Sequence record: MH560358
Origin: Escherichia virus KFS-EC
Length of the DNA: 64,000 nt
Reading direction: 5' to 3' (one strand)
Both the position numbers and the translations under genes were made by a program. The notes under the pieces are model-generated. The model saw only the letters and a program-made list of their open reading frames with translations, ran no database searches and was not told the DNA's origin. Every line of letters starts with the position of its first letter. The stretch's first letter is position 1. Shown here piece by piece: positions 6,630 to 38,124 of this stretch.

Positions 6630-8216
6630 ATGAAAACTACCAAAGAACTGATGGAAAAATGGTCCCCGCTGCTGGAAAACGAAAAACTGCCGGAAATCGC
6701 AACTGCGTCTAAGCAGAAACTGGTTGCTAAAATTCTGGAATCTCAGGAAGCGGATTTTGCTGTAGACCCGATCTATAAGGATGAAAAAGTTGTTGAAGCA
6801 TTCGGTGGCTTTATCGCAGAAGCCGAAGTTGCTGGCGACCACGGTTATGACGCATCTCAGATCGCGGCTGGTCAGACTACTGGTGCAATCACCAACGTAG
6901 GTCCGGCTGTTATCGGTATGGTTCGCCGTGCTATTCCTAACCTGATCGCATTTGATATTTGTGGCGTTCAGCCGATGAGCACTCCGACTAGCCAGATCTT
7001 TGCAATCCGTTCTGTATACGGTCCAGATCCGCTGAAATCTGGTGCTCGCGAAGCATTCCATCCGATGTATGCACCTGATGCGTTCCATAGCTCTCTTGCT
7101 GCTAAAGGTGCAACTGTAGGTTCACCAACTGGTACTGCATTCGCTAAACTAACTCTCAGCACTCCGATTGAAGCAGGTGATATTGTACACCACACCTTCG
7201 CAGAAACTGGCATTGCATATCTGCAAAACGTTACCGCAGGACAAGTAACCCCGACCCAAGCTGGCAGCGAGTCAGATGATGAAGTTGTCATGAAGCTGAT
7301 GGAAGAAGGTAAACTGGCTGAAATCGCTTTCGGTATGGCTACTTCCATTGCCGAAATTCAGGAAGGCTTTAACGGTTCCAGCAATAACCCGTGGGCTGAA
7401 ATGTCAATGCGTATTGACAAACAGGTTGTTGAAGCGAAATCTCGCCAACTGAAAGCCCGTTACTCTATCGAAGTTGCGCAGGATCTGCGTGCTGTACACG
7501 GTATGGATGCTGACGCTGAACTGAATGCTATCCTGGCTAACGAAGTTCTGCTGGAAATCAACCGTGAAATCGTTGACGTCATCAACTTTACCGCTCAGGT
7601 TGGTAAGACTGGTATGACTCAGACCGTTGGTTCTAAAGCTGGTGTATTTGACCTGCAAGATCCGATCGATACTCGCGGTGCTCGTTGGGCTGGTGAATCC
7701 TTCAAATCTCTGATCTACCAGATCGACAAAGAAGCTGCTGAAATCGCTCGTCAGACTGGTCGCGGTGCTGGTAACTTTGTTATCGCTTCCCGTAACGTTG
7801 TAAACATTCTGGCTTCTGCTGATCAGGGTATCAGTCTTGCTATGCAGGGTGCTGCAAAAGGTCTGAATACCGACACCACTAAAGCTGTTTTCGCTGGTGT
7901 TCTGGCTGGTAAGTACAAAGTATTCATCGACCAGTATGCTCGTCAGGACTACTTCACCGTAGGTTACAAAGGCGATAACGAAATGGATGCTGGTATCTAC
8001 TATGCTCCGTATGTTGCTCTGACTCCGCTGCGTGCAACTGATCCGCAGTCTTTCCACCCGGTTCTGGGCTTCAAGACTCGCTACGGCATCGGTATTAACC
8101 CGTTTGCAGACAGCAAATCCCAGGCACCGTCCGCTCGCATCACCTCCGGTATGTTGAGCAAAGACAGCGTAGGTAAAAACGCATACTTCCGTCGTGTATG
8201 GGTTAAAGGTTGCTAA
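6630..8216 (+). CDS. 23: Major capsid protein gp23
   Basis: 528 aa, extensive similarity to T4 gp23, flanked by 22 and 24. Confidence 0.95.
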   Translation: MKTTKELMEKWSPLLENEKLPEIATASKQKLVAKILESQEADFAVDPIYKDEKVVEAFGGFIAEAEVAGDHGYDASQIAAGQTTGAITNVGPAVIGMVRRAIPNLIAFDICGVQPMSTPTSQIFAIRSVYGPDPLKSGAREAFHPMYAPDAFHSSLAAKGATVGSPTGTAFAKLTLSTPIEAGDIVHHTFAETGIAYLQNVTAGQVTPTQAGSESDDEVVMKLMEEGKLAEIAFGMATSIAEIQEGFNGSSNNPWAEMSMRIDKQVVEAKSRQLKARYSIEVAQDLRAVHGMDADAELNAILANEVLLEINREIVDVINFTAQVGKTGMTQTVGSKAGVFDLQDPIDTRGARWAGESFKSLIYQIDKEAAEIARQTGRGAGNFVIASRNVVNILASADQGISLAMQGAAKGLNTDTTKAVFAGVLAGKYKVFIDQYARQDYFTVGYKGDNEMDAGIYYAPYVALTPLRATDPQSFHPVLGFKTRYGIGINPFADSKSQAPSARITSGMLSKDSVGKNAYFRRVWVKGC

Positions 8217-8302
8217 TATAAGCCAATTCCTGAAAAACTCCGGTCGGGTGAAATACCCGACTTATCATAAACCTTATGACAGTGTAAAGTGTTAATTCCA
8301 AA

Positions 8303-8331
8303 GGGAAGACTCGAAAGGGTCTTCCCTTTTT
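8303..8331 (+). terminator. Rho-independent terminator after gene 23
   Basis: GGGAAGAC-tcgaaag-GTCTTCCC hairpin followed by TTTTT. Confidence 0.7.
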
Positions 8332-8347
8332 GCGTATTATAACCTGT

Positions 8348-8355
8348 TATAAATA
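8348..8355 (+). promoter_or_regulatory. T4-type late promoter (TATAAATA)
   Basis: Exact TATAAATA immediately downstream of the gp23 terminator, ahead of two small ORFs. Confidence 0.5.
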
Positions 8356-8531
8356 AGGTTGCAAGCCTATATTCTATTGGGAGCGAAAATCGATACACAC
8401 AACAAAGACAGGAAGATGCGGAACATCGGTGGGTTGCTAGCCTAAATCCGGTGGATATGATATGTGATTTCTTTTGATGCTGGATTTATTAAAACACAAC
8501 AAACAATTCCACCAATTTTCGTAGTAACTGC

Positions 8532-8684
8532 ATGGCAAAGGGACCAATGAATGAAATGAGCGTTCATGTTGATATTGGGTCGGATAGATTTGGTAGATAT
8601 ACAGATCTGGTGTATGCCGACCTTGTTATGACATTCCAGCGTGACGCTAGCGATAATTTTTGGTTTTGGTACGCTGTTCCCTGA
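8532..8684 (+). CDS. Hypothetical small protein (50 aa)
   Basis: ATG-initiated 50-codon ORF between genes 23 and 24; weak ribosome binding site. Confidence 0.25.
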   Translation: MAKGPMNEMSVHVDIGSDRFGRYTDLVYADLVMTFQRDASDNFWFWYAVP

Positions 8685-8716
8685 ATTAACCCAAAATTCT
8701 CCATAAGGAGGAATGC

Positions 8717-8869
8717 ATGAGTAAGAAAGAAAACAGCTATGTTATGACTCGTAAGGAATACAACGAATTGATGTTAGCATTAGCTTATGCAATTATTCGT
8801 TCTGATCATGCAATTAATCTGGTAAACAAAGTTAACCGTAGCGTTGATAATGTTTCTAGGAAGAAGTAA
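8717..8869 (+). CDS. Hypothetical small protein (50 aa)
   Basis: ATG preceded by AGGAGG at good spacing; ends just before a hairpin terminator. Confidence 0.45.
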   Translation: MSKKENSYVMTRKEYNELMLALAYAIIRSDHAINLVNKVNRSVDNVSRKK

Positions 8870-8879
8870 GTTTATTTTT

Positions 8880-8901
8880 GGAATCCTTCGGATTCCTTTT
8901 T
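8880..8901 (+). terminator. Rho-independent terminator
   Basis: GGAATCC-ttcg-GGATTCC hairpin followed by TTTTT. Confidence 0.65.
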
Positions 8902-8908
8902 CTTTTTG

Positions 8909-8916
8909 TATAAATA
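8909..8916 (+). promoter_or_regulatory. T4-type late promoter (TATAAATA) upstream of gene 24
   Basis: Exact TATAAATA; it lies inside the ORF-track extension of gene 24, which argues that the real start is the downstream ATG. Confidence 0.65.
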
Positions 8917-8953
8917 TGATATATCCATTAAGGCAAATACAGGATTCATAAGC

Positions 8954-10195
8954 ATGACTCATATTTTTACTGAACTGTTGCGGGAATCTACTTCCTCAGT
9001 AGCTAACCAGACAGCGCGACCGCAACTATTATCATTAACTCGCGCGGTAAACAACCTGATTTTCTCTGATCTGGTAGCAATCCAACCAACGGATCAACCA
9101 GTATCTGCATTGTACGGCCTACGTTATCTTAATCGTGATGGTCAGATGACTTTCCGAACTGCTGCAACCTACGGTGGCGCGGCTGGTGATCGCACAGAGA
9201 TTGAAGAGTTTTCAAAAGAAAAATCTTATGACGAAGGCGCACTGTTCAAATCAGGCGATGTTGTATACGAAGTTGTGACCGCTGGTACAGTCGGTGAAGA
9301 TGCCGAAACTCCAGAATCTGCGATCTTTAAAGGCGTAATGACAAACAAAATTCGTTTCTATAGCGATTGTGCATCGGTAGAATACTTTGAAGATAAAAAC
9401 ACCGAAATTGTGTCTACCTCTATGCAGTTTGACAAGTGGCAAGTTAATGTAGGTTCTCGTAAACTGAAAACCTCGTTCACCACTGAATTAATGCAGGATC
9501 TTGAGGCAAGCCAAATCAACTCTGAAAACTCTGTAATTGATCTTCTGGCTACTGTTGCTTCCGAAGAGATCAACAAAGATATTATTCAGAAGTTGATCAC
9601 TGTATCATCTCGCTATAAAATTAAAGGGATCACCCCTGATGGCGTACTTTCTCTCGTTAGCGTTCAGGATGCACCATCACAAGCGCGTGAACTTTACCGC
9701 TATGCTTGCGAGATGAGCAATCAAATGTTGCGGACTTCCTCCTTTGCTGGTACATACGTTTTGGCGTCTTCTCGCGTGGTTGGCCTCCTGCAATCATCCG
9801 GTTGGATGGAAGAAACCGACAATGCTCTAAGCGAAGGTCGTCTACGTTGCGGTCTGGAAGTGTACGCAGACACGACAACACCTTTCGATTATATGCTCGT
9901 TGGTTGTAAGCACATGATCGGTGATATGGAGAGTGTAGGTTCTCTGTTCTACTCCCCATATACAGAAGCCGACGGCGCTGGCGCGTATAAGAGCGTAATT
10001 GACCCTAATAGCTTCCAGCATCATGTAGCTATTATGAATCGTTATTCACTCTCTGTCAACCCATACACATCAAAAGTTGATCAGGAAGAACACCAGGTCA
10101 TCAAGGGTGACGATTGGGGTAAAATGGCTGGACGTTCAGAAATGTCCTACATTTTAGGAATCGAACTGCCACCACTTGAGATTGACAACGCTTAA
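8954..10195 (+). CDS. 24: Capsid vertex protein gp24
   Basis: Similarity to T4 gp24 begins at the internal Met (MTHIFTELLREST); the track start at 8906 is probably TTG and overlaps the late promoter. Confidence 0.9.
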   Translation: MTHIFTELLRESTSSVANQTARPQLLSLTRAVNNLIFSDLVAIQPTDQPVSALYGLRYLNRDGQMTFRTAATYGGAAGDRTEIEEFSKEKSYDEGALFKSGDVVYEVVTAGTVGEDAETPESAIFKGVMTNKIRFYSDCASVEYFEDKNTEIVSTSMQFDKWQVNVGSRKLKTSFTTELMQDLEASQINSENSVIDLLATVASEEINKDIIQKLITVSSRYKIKGITPDGVLSLVSVQDAPSQARELYRYACEMSNQMLRTSSFAGTYVLASSRVVGLLQSSGWMEETDNALSEGRLRCGLEVYADTTTPFDYMLVGCKHMIGDMESVGSLFYSPYTEADGAGAYKSVIDPNSFQHHVAIMNRYSLSVNPYTSKVDQEEHQVIKGDDWGKMAGRSEMSYILGIELPPLEIDNA

Positions 10196-10783
10196 CTAAA
10201 TATCTAACCAAGACAAGTCAGATCCGCCCAAGATTTTTTCGACGGCGGATCTATTTTCTTGATGATATAAGTTAAAACATGGTATCCCATGTCTACGGGC
10301 AACATAAACAGCAATTCTAGTTCCTCCCGAAACGATTCCATTAACTTCTTTCGCCCAGAATATCACACAATCTACAGGATCATCAAGTGTCTCACCTAAG
10401 ACTTGAGCAACATTTCTAGAAAACAGATTTTGCATGTATAACGGTATAGAACGAGGATTATCATAAACGTGTTCTAATTCATCCATCGCCAGATTTTTTT
10501 GTTCTAAGGTTTGCCATGCAATCACATCATGACCGTTATGCTTGTGGTCATAAAACTTCCAATTTGGAATGAAAATTTTTCTATACTCTGGATCGTAATA
10601 CTTCATGAAAGCATTGTCCATACCGTAAGCCCCTCCAGAATGCGCTACAACGCGATTTTCTGACAATACCCTCCCAATGGTACTAGCCATTATCAAAATG
10701 TCGCTAGGCGCTTTTCTAGAGCCGATTAAAGCACATCTACGAAGTGGTTTTACTCCAAATAGATCTTGTAACTGGTCAAACAT
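10196..10783 (-). CDS. DprA/Smf-like Rossmann-fold protein
   Basis: 195 aa with GSR...HSGGAYGMDNAF resembling the DprA signature (GSR...SGxAxGxD); strong GGAGG ribosome binding site; occupies the position where T4 has rnlB. Confidence 0.5.
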   Translation of the reverse strand: MFDQLQDLFGVKPLRRCALIGSRKAPSDILIMASTIGRVLSENRVVAHSGGAYGMDNAFMKYYDPEYRKIFIPNWKFYDHKHNGHDVIAWQTLEQKNLAMDELEHVYDNPRSIPLYMQNLFSRNVAQVLGETLDDPVDCVIFWAKEVNGIVSGGTRIAVYVARRHGIPCFNLYHQENRSAVEKILGGSDLSWLDI

Positions 10784-10935
10784 AATATTTCCTCCATAGA
10801 AAGCAATATCATACTACAAGTTAATAACAAATACAAGTATCCGCGTAGCGGAAGCGAGCACAGCGAGCAATAAAACACTTCCAGTAATTGATTAATAAAT
10901 GTTCGAAACAAATTTTTATTATTCTATAAGATAAG

Positions 10936-10961
10936 TCTTCGTTTTGATCATAATTTAATCA
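10936..10961. repeat. 26-nt direct repeat copy 1 (TCTTCGTTTTGATCATAATTTAATCA)
   Basis: Identical copy found about 150 nt away in the same non-coding region. Confidence 0.7.
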
Positions 10962-11085
10962 TACATGTAAAAAACTACACAAAAGGATATCGCTTCGCGA
11001 ACTCCTACGGAGTATAACATTTGTGTTACAATATGTAGTGATTAATAATTAACCAAAGATACATTTTCTATGTTCTAAAGATCTT

Positions 11086-11111
11086 TCTTCGTTTTGATCA
11101 TAATTTAATCA
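11086..11111. repeat. 26-nt direct repeat copy 2
   Basis: Identical to copy 1; both are followed at similar distance by ACATGTAAA. Confidence 0.7.
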
Positions 11112-11162
11112 AACAGTATTAATATTGTGCACATGTAAACTAAAATTATGTTAATAACAGAT

Positions 11163-11188
11163 ACAAAAAGCCGCCCCTAAGGACGGCT
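11163..11188 (-). terminator. Rho-independent terminator downstream of the 11197..11634 gene
   Basis: Hairpin AGCCGtCC-ttag-GGGCGGCT with a U-tract on the minus strand. Confidence 0.55.
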
Positions 11189-11196
11189 AATGTTAA

Positions 11197-11634
11197 TTAT
11201 TTGTTGATAACGATCTGATTTCGGCGAATGGTAACATTACTCTTAGAGATGATCAGATCATCCGGCACTACGTTAGTTTTGTATGGCTGGAAGCGAACAA
11301 GCATCTGATTGCGTTTAGACCCTTCCTTAATCTTGATTTCCATCTGGATATTGTTGCCTACGTGAGCAACCGCAATTTCACCTTTATTCTCATAGACCCA
11401 CTTGCTGGTAACGTCTCCCGCAAAAGCCTTAATAACTTGCAATGCTTCGTCGTATGCGGTAGAGCTGTGAACTTTCAGAAGGCCAGCCGTAGCAAGACGG
11501 GAGCAGGTGATCGCCGGAGATTGCCAAACATCAACATTAATTTGCTCAATCAGCGTAACACCGCCCTGATCAACTGCTTTGAATGCTTCGAACATTGCCT
11601 TTTTCATTGCTACGTGGTTTTTACGGAATTTCAT
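11197..11634 (-). CDS. Hypothetical protein (145 aa)
   Basis: ORF with normal codon usage in a minus-strand gene series; no motif recognised. Confidence 0.55.
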   Translation of the reverse strand: MKFRKNHVAMKKAMFEAFKAVDQGGVTLIEQINVDVWQSPAITCSRLATAGLLKVHSSTAYDEALQVIKAFAGDVTSKWVYENKGEIAVAHVGNNIQMEIKIKEGSKRNQMLVRFQPYKTNVVPDDLIISKSNVTIRRNQIVINK

Positions 11635-11680
11635 AATTAGTCACCTCTATTGATTAGTTATTCAGAATATTAATTACAAA

Positions 11681-11956
11681 TCAGGACATTGCCCGTTTGA
11701 ATGCGTCCATTATAACAGTGTTATTTGGCATGTCAACACGTTTTTGAACTTTATTTTTAAATTTTTTGTTGATGTGGTGTTTACGATAAACAACCTTTTC
11801 ACGGTTGGCGTAAGCCTCTCGTGCATCTTTTACCATCAACCATGCCTTAGCCGCATCTTGTCCGCTGATCCCGCCAATCTTTTTAGCAATATCAACAAAA
11901 TTAAGACCGTGGTCTTCGCGTAGCATGTAAACCATTAACGCTGTTTTCTTGTCCAT
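11681..11956 (-). CDS. Hypothetical protein (91 aa; longer 127 aa alternative starts at 12064)
   Basis: Internal ATG at 11956 overlaps the stop of the upstream membrane-protein ORF in a TGATG arrangement typical of coupling. Confidence 0.45.
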   Translation of the reverse strand: MDKKTALMVYMLREDHGLNFVDIAKKIGGISGQDAAKAWLMVKDAREAYANREKVVYRKHHINKKFKNKVQKRVDMPNNTVIMDAFKRAMS

Positions 11957-12153
11957 CACTTCGCCCCATTGACGATTAACAGGATAGTGATCAGCACCGG
12001 AAACTGGATCATGACAGTACCAATAAACCGGATAAACGCATTTTCTGACTTCCACACATGACATGCGACTAGCTGATAGACCATTGTTGCAACCAAAGCC
12101 AGAAAATACATCTCGATTGGTGCTTCTTTGATCAATCGTACAATCTCATTCAT
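11956..12153 (-). CDS. Small hydrophobic membrane protein (65 aa)
   Basis: ATG start; strongly hydrophobic sequence predicted to span the membrane. Confidence 0.45.
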   Translation of the reverse strand: MNEIVRLIKEAPIEMYFLALVATMVYQLVACHVWKSENAFIRFIGTVMIQFPVLITILLIVNGAK

Positions 12154-12279
12154 ACTTCACCTCATACATTCATAAACACAACAACGAATAATACAGTAAC
12201 AGTTATTAAAGCCATTTTCAACCCCATATTCATAATATTTTCTTCGCCTCACTATGACAGTAGCATGTCGATGCGTGCC

Positions 12280-12307
12280 ATTATAGGCATCTAAATCGCT
12301 CTGTCAA
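12280..12307 (-). promoter_or_regulatory. Sigma70-like early promoter (TTGACA / TATAAT)
   Basis: Minus-strand TTGACA, 16-17 nt spacer, TATAAT between hoc and the 12153 gene. Confidence 0.45.
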
Positions 12308-12312
12308 GCACT

Positions 12313-12343
12313 AAAAACAAAAAAGCCACCCCGAAGGATGGCT
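12313..12343 (-). terminator. Rho-independent terminator downstream of hoc
   Basis: AGCCATCC-ttcg-GGGTGGCT hairpin followed by a U-tract on the minus strand. Confidence 0.7.
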
Positions 12344-12354
12344 GATAGATTTCA

Positions 12355-13581
12355 TTAAGCAGGATGCGTTTCACGAATGCGTAGAACTCGATCTGACGTC
12401 TCTCGGTCCAGTTTATGGAACTCTTTGGAATGATACATGAAACCATTGCGAGATTCCATGCAAGTGCAATCACTATATTTTTCTTCCGCTGCCGCGATTG
12501 TCTCCAGATCTTTGGCGTACTTGCTGGTAGAATAAACTTCTCGGTCACGCCACTCTAACCCAGCCTTATTGTATTTAACGATCTCGTCAAATACCCACCA
12601 TCCAATGTAGATAAATGAAGTTTTGCGCCACGGGATCGGGTGTACGTAACGAAACATTTTATGAAGAGATTCAACAACTTCCATTGAACATTTTCTGCTT
12701 GCACTTGATGCAACTTCTACTGTTTCCTCTTCGATCTGTTGATATAGTTTAGCAACACACCAGAATTTGGCTGTGTCATCGTAAGTAGCACGCTCTTTGA
12801 ATAGATGACCGTCTGGCATGATAGAAAATCCTTCCAGTGCTTCGCCGTCCTCACTACCGATCAGAGTCGGTGACGGTTGCCCTTCGCGCTGCAAATACCA
12901 GTTATGTTTGATCGTCAATTTAGGCATACCGCTAGAATCGCCTACAATGTCCTCTGACACAACATAATTAAGTAAGATCTCCTTACCTAGTGCCACGGTC
13001 TTTGATTCCACCACATCCTGATCTACGTTCATTGTTGCCAGCATGATTTTAGTCGATGCGCTATCGGCTGAATCTTCCGACTCACCCCACACTTTTACAG
13101 TATACACGCCGTTTTTATCTGCTGTAAATTCTTTGATTGTAATATTCTGTTTTGTGTCTATAACTTCTTCGCCCTTACTCCAACTATAATGTAGTTCATA
13201 GTTGTCTGCTGGAGTCTTCCCACCCGAAAATTTTACTGTTGCATGTAATTCTACGTCTTTTTGTGATGATACGTAGAAATGCGGCGGTTCGGTGATATTT
13301 ACGATTAATTCAGCTTCTTCCATGAGGAAAACGTCAGATTCTACTGATGTCGTCGTATCGGTATCTTGTACCGTTACTTTATAGCTACCCGCATTTTCAC
13401 TTGTTGCGTCTGCTACAGTTAGCGTAGCTGTGCTATTTTCATGCGGTTGGTCGTCTTTTGTCCATGTATATGTCAAATTGCTGGGTAATGGTTCGTCACC
13501 CGTTACAGTCGCCGTTAAGGTGAAACCATCGCCAGCAAGAAAACATCTTTTGTCAGATTTAATTGATACTGTGAAAGCCAT
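12355..13581 (-). CDS. hoc: Outer capsid decoration protein Hoc
   Basis: N-terminal Ig-like repeats; C-terminus YVHPIPWRKTSFIYIGWWVFDEI...ESRNGFMYH matches the T4 Hoc capsid-binding domain. Confidence 0.85.
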   Translation of the reverse strand: MAFTVSIKSDKRCFLAGDGFTLTATVTGDEPLPSNLTYTWTKDDQPHENSTATLTVADATSENAGSYKVTVQDTDTTTSVESDVFLMEEAELIVNITEPPHFYVSSQKDVELHATVKFSGGKTPADNYELHYSWSKGEEVIDTKQNITIKEFTADKNGVYTVKVWGESEDSADSASTKIMLATMNVDQDVVESKTVALGKEILLNYVVSEDIVGDSSGMPKLTIKHNWYLQREGQPSPTLIGSEDGEALEGFSIMPDGHLFKERATYDDTAKFWCVAKLYQQIEEETVEVASSASRKCSMEVVESLHKMFRYVHPIPWRKTSFIYIGWWVFDEIVKYNKAGLEWRDREVYSTSKYAKDLETIAAAEEKYSDCTCMESRNGFMYHSKEFHKLDRETSDRVLRIRETHPA

Positions 13582-37658: not shown

Positions 37659-38124
37659 TTTCACCTCGTTTTGTTAAACGTTCACGAATATCATTGAGGA
37701 TACTACAAAATTCCGATTCAGTCAATATAGTCTTTAACGGATCAGTTCCACCTATGCTATGACGTAATTTCTTATTTCCGGTAGCGAGTAATGCTTTACA
37801 AAATTCTGGGTTATTCCGTGCCATCGTAACAAATGCCAGATGTACCAGTCTGTAATAATGCTCACTCATTCGATGAATCGGGCGACCCTGAAAATATAAC
37901 ATGTGATTCTCAATCTTTTCAGATCTTCCGGTTCTTTTTGCTTTGCCACCGTGCATCAAAAAGATTTCTCTTTGTCTCTGAGGGTTCTTAAATCTTAGCC
38001 CCTGTAAAAATCCTTCTGTGCTGTTAATATCGCAACCAAATAGACGGAATGGTCTTTTATTGAAATTACTCAATTCACCCGATGGATAAGGTCCACCCGC
38101 ATAGATATCAATTTCAGAAGTCAT
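37645..38124 (-). CDS. NADAR / YbiA-like (DUF1768) protein
   Basis: IYAGGPYPSGELSNF ... STEGFLQGLRF ... KALLATGNKKL parallels E. coli YbiA (INFYS...GDFSNF ... SEHYFQAQKF ... RALLLATAPAKL). Confidence 0.6.
   Translation of the reverse strand: MTSEIDIYAGGPYPSGELSNFNKRPFRLFGCDINSTEGFLQGLRFKNPQRQREIFLMHGGKAKRTGRSEKIENHMLYFQGRPIHRMSEHYYRLVHLAFVTMARNNPEFCKALLATGNKKLRHSIGGTDPLKTILTESEFCSILNDIRERLTKRGENVNS

Follow-up and report, generated by a model that had tools for sequence, protein, structure and literature searches.

The minus-strand gene that converges on gene 24 in Escherichia virus KFS-EC encodes a small protein that sequence comparison places beside DprA, in a separate sister family of the SLOG superfamily that keeps the DprA base/ssDNA pocket and has neither SAM nor DML1 domain. 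Our best explanation, tentatively held at somewhat less than an even chance, is that it is a clamp-tethered, DprA-clade SLOG protein that would bind ssDNA and assist the reversal of base damage, above all DNA ADP-ribosylation. The gene and its 'DprA-like' label were already in the databases, and the theme of its domain fusions was noted in 2022. What is new is that the family is a sister clade of DprA and not YpsA-like, carrying the pocket motifs and scoring below the DprA family thresholds, that the gene accompanies rnlB rather than replacing it, and that a T4-like subclade ends in a tail of the type found on clients of the sliding clamp gp45.

The stretch of DNA analyzed (64,000 nucleotides of sequence record MH560358, hereafter the window) belongs to a Krischvirus of the RB49/GEC-3S group, its positions 8000-13000 matching more than 50 sequenced phages at 97.6-98.5% identity. 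The first-pass annotation, made from the letters alone, had described a 195 aa ORF with a GSR...SGGAxGxD signature and a strong ribosome binding site, directly convergent on gene 24 with adjacent stop codons. All of these elements are present (Table 1): the stop codon of the ORF (10196-10198) abuts the TAA of gene 24 (capsid vertex), which ends at 10195, the signature reads G21-S22-R23 and S49-G-G-A-Y-G-M-D56, and GGAGG precedes the ATG by 7 nt. A non-coding gap of 413 nt (10784-11196) extends from the start of the ORF to the upstream ORF (11197-11634), with 385 nt between the terminator-like hairpin and the DprA-like ORF. A promoter search in this gap gave neither a sigma-70-like site 5' of the start nor a minus-strand TATAAATA, and Rfam gave no match. 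Downstream of the terminator, the gap also holds an exact 25-nt direct repeat, GATTAAATTATGATCAAAACGAAGA, with minus-strand copies at 10936-10960 and 11086-11110, 150 nt apart. This sequence is absent from the rest of the window (chance expectation 0), matches nothing in Rfam and shows no recognizable promoter of the sigma-70 or late type. The repeat may have a regulatory role or reflect a duplication.

Table 1. Features of the DprA-like gene and of its upstream region in the window.
Feature	Position	Strand	Basis
CDS, single-domain DprA-like SLOG protein	10196..10783	-	ATG start, 195 aa + stop; ORF list, PHROG 768, AF2 model
Linker and tail G186-G-S-D-L-S-W-L-D-I195, candidate gp45-binding motif	10199..10228	-	Beyond PHROG profile (ends at 187); pLDDT 77, then 47
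G153-G-T-R-I-A158, phosphate/base loop	10310..10327	-	Position of LOG PGGxGTxxE, Glu replaced by Ala158; aligned with HpDprA GSMSSA
L120-F-S-R123-N124, DprA motif 2 ([FLY]-x-x-R-[ND])	10412..10426	-	R123 invariant; PMC3950713
S49-G-G-A-Y-G-M-D56, glycine-rich loop (SGGALGVD in HpDprA)	10616..10639	-	HpDprA alignment; G50 and D56 invariant
G21-S22-R23, DprA motif 1 (G-[STA]-R; Arg52 pocket 'switch' in HpDprA)	10715..10723	-	Aligned to HpDprA GTR
Shine-Dalgarno GGAGG	10791..10795	-	7 nt 5' of ATG; read directly from sequence
Terminator-like intrinsic hairpin closing the hoc-side upstream genes	11169..11188	-	Terminator scan; annotated as terminator in GEC-3S

The protein matches PHROG 768 with an E-value of 1.3e-60, residues 15-187 aligning with profile positions 4-181 of 191. 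The name of this group, 'DprA-like DNA recombination-mediator protein', is an annotation and not a function shown by test; the RefSeq orthologue in GEC-3S already bears it, and our literature search found no experimental work on the family. The ORF occurs at 95% identity or more in 57 Krischvirus records, and tblastn retrieved family matches in 1,352 phage records covering many hosts. Given this distribution and the PHROG match, the ORF is not a chance reading frame, and the family, whose spread among related phages the first-pass annotation had proposed to check, is widespread. An exhaustive HMM search yielded 4,319 clusters at 50% identity, mostly of stand-alone proteins of ~180 aa. The earlier call of a DprA/Smf-like protein was right in kind, as judged by motifs, fold and PHROG 768, but the protein belongs to a separate sister family. 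Pfam DNA_processg_A (PF02481), the model proposed for checking that call, does give a weak match of 22.3 bits, which covers residues 15-60 only and lies under the gathering threshold of 29.6 set for a domain of ~205 residues, while the NCBIfam equivalog TIGR00732 scores 14.4 bits against a cut-off of 191. Among 150 family members, 107 have a weak Pfam DprA match (best E-value 8e-7). The sole other SLOG Pfam model matched in this set is LDcluster4 (19 members), and no member matches PF10686 through its own domain.

An AF2 model built with 32 homologues (pLDDT 94.1, pTM 0.89) has a Rossmannoid core of five strands and poorly ordered last ten residues. It displays the features of the SLOG superfamily, namely a three-layer Rossmannoid fold, glycine-rich loops after strands 1 and 2, and the helix with the conserved Arg. 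Using Foldseek, the top nine matches were all chains of Helicobacter pylori DprA (HpDprA; E-value 3e-5, TM about 0.5); the superposition covers only about 130 residues, and the segment ~74-112 differs. The record of Winklervirus LC53 cites HHpred for 'Mycobacterium phage D29 Gp61'; the fold-search matches listed contained no PDB entry of that kind. In BFVD, proteins of YAcAr/DUF2493, the other SLOG family common in viruses, were clearly more distant (TM 0.42-0.46) than members of the family are from each other (0.65-0.78). The 195 residues form one domain in the model and have no further Pfam matches, with no accessory N-terminal SAM or C-terminal DML1/winged-helix domain.

In the HpDprA-ssDNA structure of Wang et al., a flipped thymine is held in a pocket, and two DprA-defining pocket motifs were proposed and examined by mutagenesis, G-[STA]-R (R52) and [FLY]-x-x-R-[ND] (F140, R143, N144), in contrast to the LOG motif PGGxGTxxE (PMC3950713). 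Motif 1 corresponds in HpDprA to G50-R52, in the loop after the first core strand, and motif 2 to F140-N144, in the pocket helix. Six residues of the window protein (G50, D56, R123, G153, G154 and T155) are invariant in the 150 diverse homologues, and eight more (G21, S22, R23, S49, A52, G54, N124 and A158) are conserved in at least 90% of them. Where LOG proteins have PGGxGTxxE with its catalytic Glu, the window protein reads S-G-G-T-R-I-A158. Since both pocket motifs are present, the LOG Glu is replaced and the curated DprA thresholds are not reached, we place the protein beside DprA and not within it. A LOG-like nucleotide hydrolase, the competing assignment raised in the first-pass annotation, was rejected: there is no Pfam LOG match, the catalytic residue is changed, and a profile of the 150 sequences searched against the PDB is significant for DprA chains alone (1.3e-5, with LOG at 0.07 and MCP at 0.65). 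As a whole, the initial interpretation is partly supported.

The C-terminal tail suggests a link to the sliding clamp. In T4, the gp45-binding motif LDFLF has been established experimentally at the end of gp43 (EKASLDFLFG) and in a loop of DNA ligase (EPEGLDFLFD) (PMC6212786), and the C-termini of gp55 and gp33, hydrophobic and acidic, can be exchanged for one another (PMC2988020). Among the gp45 ligands named in these two papers, none is a DprA-like or SLOG protein. After a Pro/Gly-rich linker, orthologues of the window protein in enterobacterial T4-like phages end in SLDFLI, TLDFLYD, NLDFLM, DLDWLL or SLDDLF, with TLDFLW in Slopekvirus, SLDWLF in Bragavirus, PFDIFKL in Winklervirus LC53 and RFDIFSL in Jiaodavirus. 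The tail is SLDHLFSDS in an IMG/VR contig matching Serratia phage Muldoon (L023) and SLDWLGI in a relative 71% identical to the window protein. In Krischvirus, gp43 ends in SLTDLFDI and gp55 in SLDQFYEIEN, and gp43 tails from 24 T4-like contigs read SLFDMFDF, SLTDLFDI, SLEDFFDI, SLADLFDF and similar. Where both proteins were recovered, the type of the DprA-like tail tracks that of gp43 (PFDIFKL with LFDMFDF, RFDIFTLE with LFDMFEM, DLSWLDI with SLTDLFDI).

A regular expression for clamp tails, checked on independent gp43 tails (eight of nine matched), was found in 6 of 45 non-redundant phage clusters, all of them enterobacterial T4-likes, against a background of 0.64% of ORF tails from the same loci (binomial p about 4e-7). 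It supersedes an earlier expression that was designed with the data already in view and gave 7 matches against 2.7 expected. The tail of the window protein, DLSWLDI, fails the checked expression; it shares a hydrophobic pair and a terminal -DI with its own gp43. The tail is absent from family members of Pakpunavirus, phi92-like, Aeromonas, Acinetobacter and marine phages and of bacteria, and neither Rnl2 nor NADAR has one. Binding to gp45 thus appears probable for the enterobacterial T4-like subclade and, because its own tail has diverged and escapes the expression, plausible for the window protein itself. At the other end of the protein, DQLQDLFG (residues 2-9, 10757-10780) resembles the bacterial beta-clamp motif QL[SD]LF and T4 LDFLFG. 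It was rejected as a clamp motif, as it is not conserved in relatives of 57-71% identity and forms a well-packed helix in the model, and the resemblance is probably due to chance.

The same type of tail was seen in an enzyme encoded outside the window, the Dam-like methyltransferase BN201_0144 of GEC-3S (75645-76484; L015:25645-26484). This protein extends 29 residues past its PHROG profile and closes with TLSDLFDI, a sequence that nearly reproduces the end of gp43 and shares with DLSWLDI the hydrophobic pair and -DI; it is a candidate clamp-tethered enzyme.

The most telling evidence on function comes from domain fusions, all of them within single ORFs. In the set of the 150 best representatives, the DprA-like domain is joined to NADAR (P0070, P0146, P0176), to NADAR, YAcAr and LDcluster4 in giant proteins (P0040, P0042), to DUF4326 (P0160) and to RecJ (DHH-DHHA1-OB; P0164). 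Bacterial genomes encode DarT1-type NADAR-domain-YAcAr proteins (L112 and three relatives), Macro-domain-NADAR (L171) and domain-Macro (L140) combinations, and fusions to DUF4326 (L121) or to a PD-(D/E)XK nuclease (L162). The domain is also embedded in giant IMG/VR ORFs of 1,269 to 3,405 aa (L045:414-10631, L095:3051-12221, L041:5319-9128, L082:5643-9983), in one of which it is followed by DUF7831 and DUF4326 (L095) and in another preceded by a sub-threshold AlkB-like 2OG-Fe(II) match (L082). Pfam matches outside the domain are otherwise nearly nil in these ORFs, which are likely polyvalent proteins with many uncharacterized domains.

Viral SLOG-Macro-NADAR-DUF4326 fusions were noted before and were predicted to process or sense soluble ADPr derivatives (Iyer et al., 2022; PMC9503650). 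NADAR enzymes have since been shown to strip ADP-ribose from guanine in ssDNA, and the T4 NADAR protein gp30.3 (AdfN) defeats DarTG1 (PMC11543638, PMC11125620, PMC11825919). A homologue of gp30.3 (39% identity over 151 aa) is encoded on the minus strand of the window at 37675-38118, and the most frequent fusion partner is therefore present as a separate gene in the same phage. GEC-3S also has a homologue of the weakly Macro-like gp016 of PaP1, a phage in which the gene order is Prs-NadV-Macro-x-x-DprA-like domain. We also clustered neighboring genes without bias, using 80 loci from viruses, which make up 48 non-redundant clusters, and 80 from bacteria, which make up 36. No universal partner gene was found, the recurrent neighbors being lineage-restricted (Rnl2 in 6 clusters, NadV in 4, Macro in 3), and the top recurrent small neighbors had no Pfam match. 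DarT was not found beside the fused bacterial genes, whose neighbors were a Phd/PIN pair and dNMP kinases.

Together, the DprA pocket, the clamp-type tail and the fusions to enzymes working on damaged or single-stranded DNA (NADAR, DarG-type Macro, RecJ, PD-(D/E)XK and possibly AlkB) suggest a function on ssDNA. The pocket would hold one flipped-out ssDNA nucleotide, and the short flexible C-terminal tail would dock on gp45; this tether could bring the protein to replication forks and nicks, where it would bind exposed ssDNA. There, it may serve as the nucleic-acid-recognition partner, less probably a catalytic one, of base-damage-reversing enzymes, with ssDNA ADP-ribosylation by DarT-type host toxins as the main target. 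Such enzymes (NADAR, Macro, DUF4326) are found fused to the domain elsewhere, and here NADAR and Macro-like homologues have genes of their own; a link to the reversal of DNA ADP-ribosylation would make the protein a counter-defence accessory at replication forks. A bolder version is conceivable and seems to us unlikely: a DprA-derived 'reader', and new client of the clamp, would flip template bases at the fork into its pocket, recognize ADP-ribosylated or bulky bases left by DarT-like toxins, and then pass them on to NADAR/Macro hydrolases or itself excise or reverse them.

Some of the same observations could fit the function proposed in the first-pass annotation, a classical recombination mediator whose dimer would coat ssDNA, load UvsX or host RecA and supplement UvsY, with the tail placing it at stalled forks. 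DprA is the nearest characterized family and the motifs of its ssDNA pocket are conserved, the RecJ and PD-(D/E)XK nuclease fusions would suit the processing of recombinational ends, and a Dda-like helicase gene is the neighbor in a Vibrio phage. We give this possibility a minor share of the probability.

Similarly doubtful is the reading that follows from Iyer, Burroughs, Anantharaman and Aravind (2022), in which the SLOG pocket would bind or cleave a free NAD+/ADP-ribose derivative, such as a cADPR-type signal or an ADPr by-product, and the protein would act as a sponge or N-glycosidase against Thoeris-like or NADase defences. NADAR and DarG-type Macro domains have meanwhile proved to act on DNA that carries ADP-ribose. 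Moreover, the family is nearer to DprA than to ThsA, YpsA or YAcAr, the LOG catalytic Glu is absent, and a clamp-type tail along with RecJ and PD-(D/E)XK fusions is hard to reconcile with an enzyme for free nucleotides.

The genomic position of the gene bears on another alternative. The T4 order 24> <rnlB <24.2 <24.3 <hoc compares with 24> <DprA-like ORF <145-aa ORF <24.3-like (DUF2774) <small ORFs <hoc in the window. This match in gene order confirms that the ORF occupies the place of T4 rnlB, as first suggested, and the accompanying remark that rnlB itself is missing was also correct, as tblastn (E<0.1) detected no Rnl2 homologue, either in the window alone or in the composite Krischvirus genome formed by adding GEC-3S 1-88.5 kb and 151-163.4 kb to it. 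The 24.3-like gene (11681-11956, minus strand) encodes a DUF2774 protein (Pfam E-value 4e-29) with 38% identity to T4 gp24.3, and its presence makes the block from rnlB to hoc otherwise syntenic with T4; a longer ORF call for it (11681-12064) probably starts too early. The DprA-like gene is nonetheless not a replacement of rnlB, since both genes stand in tandem in four sister genera. They overlap by 1 nt in Winklervirus and Jiaodavirus and by 11 nt in Slopekvirus, and two small ORFs separate them in Bragavirus. Winklervirus, Bragavirus and Jiaodavirus have the pair convergent on the gene 24 region (with one hypothetical ORF between in the last), and no capsid gene lies within the stretch examined at the Slopekvirus locus. 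T4 has only rnlB, and Krischvirus only the DprA-like gene.

Such pairing could mean that the protein is an accessory in RNA repair, a partner of Rnl2 with affinity for ssRNA or RNA:DNA ends. The Rnl2 gene lies ahead of the DprA-like gene in these four T4-like genera, overlapping or close to it, and is its immediate upstream neighbor in 6 non-redundant clusters. We regard this as quite improbable, given that Krischvirus has the gene without Rnl2 and T4 has Rnl2 without the gene. The adjacency is limited to related Straboviridae, where it may be inherited synteny, and no linkage or fusion to Rnl2 occurs elsewhere among the neighbor clusters and bacterial loci. Other settings are found in an Acinetobacter phage, where the gene lies near gene 56, and in an Aeromonas phage, where it adjoins a conserved gene for a protein of ~480 aa preceding gene 55. 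This protein (PHROG 2467, no Pfam match) adjoins gene 55 both in Aeromonas phage phiAS4 (ORF0229, L006:4546-5985), where its gene overlaps the stop codon of the DprA-like gene, and in GEC-3S (BN201_0044, L014:27713-29182).

Two database labels mentioning RNA ligase were encountered. The orthologue in phage Skers (MW748999.1, L007:2693-3280) was deposited as 'putative RNA ligase' and has no ligase similarity, the label having apparently been transferred by synteny with T4 rnlB. In GEC-3S, BN201_0127 (L015:11090-11554), which adjoins genes for a tail fiber chaperone and a dNMP kinase, bears an 'RNA ligase' label that is doubtful, as its 154 aa are far too short for Rnl1 or Rnl2 and tblastn gave no match to Rnl2.

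Least probable is that the protein stands in for ShosA/PsyrA, DprA-like antitoxins with ssDNA and RecA as binding partners, and thereby prevents toxins of the ShosT/PsyrT type from acting in the infected cell, since the PADLOC matches (18-21 bits) are generic, cover only 45 residues that every DprA-like protein shares and do not surpass the DprA match itself, the SAM domain and C-terminal helix needed for ShosA stability are absent, the neighbors are capsid genes and small ORFs with no adjacent PRTase toxin gene, and the NADAR, Macro and DUF4326 fusions would be left unexplained.

The family is found in 1,352 phage records and forms over 4,300 protein clusters at 50% identity, which makes it very common, and its members are routinely labelled 'DprA-like recombination mediator' on the strength of ~45 aligned residues. 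If the preferred reading, clamp tethering with reversal of DNA ADP-ribosylation, is correct, this label misstates their biology, the replisome clamp becomes tied to the removal of ADP-ribose from DNA, and the short list of gp45 clients gains one more entry. To our knowledge, AdfA, AdfN (NADAR) and DarG-like mimics are the only counter-defences against DNA ADP-ribosylation known so far. If instead the protein is a genuine loader of UvsX or RecA, T4-type recombination would have a second mediator. Either outcome would correct or justify thousands of database annotations. A true 'reader' would amount to a so far undescribed step of phage counter-defence, and it would suggest that the DprA pocket was ancestrally a device for base inspection.

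Compared with known systems, the window protein differs from ShosA/PsyrA in lacking a SAM domain, a partner toxin gene and any specific sequence affinity to them, and from LOG phosphoribohydrolases (PF03641), which act on cytokinin riboside 5'-monophosphate, in its conserved Ala158 in place of the catalytic Glu and in the absence of a Pfam LOG match. With the viral SLOG proteins of the NAD+/ADPr network (Iyer et al., 2022) and the YAcAr/DUF2493 family (PF10686), it shares a stand-alone SLOG domain in phages and the fusions to NADAR, Macro and DUF4326, and YAcAr and the DprA-like domain even co-occur in the same polyvalent proteins (P0040, L112). It nevertheless belongs to a family separate from the YAcAr/YpsA-like proteins (PF10686, DUF1273), its nearest characterized relative being DprA and not YpsA. 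Relative to H. pylori DprA (4LJK/4LJR; PF02481), it is a phage-encoded single domain of 195 aa, without SAM or DML1/winged-helix, in a family recurrently fused to ADP-ribose hydrolase domains and with a T4-like subclade that carries a clamp-binding-type tail. To the gp45 clients (gp43, gp55, gp33 and DNA ligase), the likeness lies in a candidate binding motif, hydrophobic and acidic, at the extreme C-terminus behind a flexible linker; DLSWLDI in the window protein is a diverged version, whereas the orthologue tails SLDFLI, TLDFLW and FDIFSL match the T4 LDFLF and RB69 LFDMFDF types.
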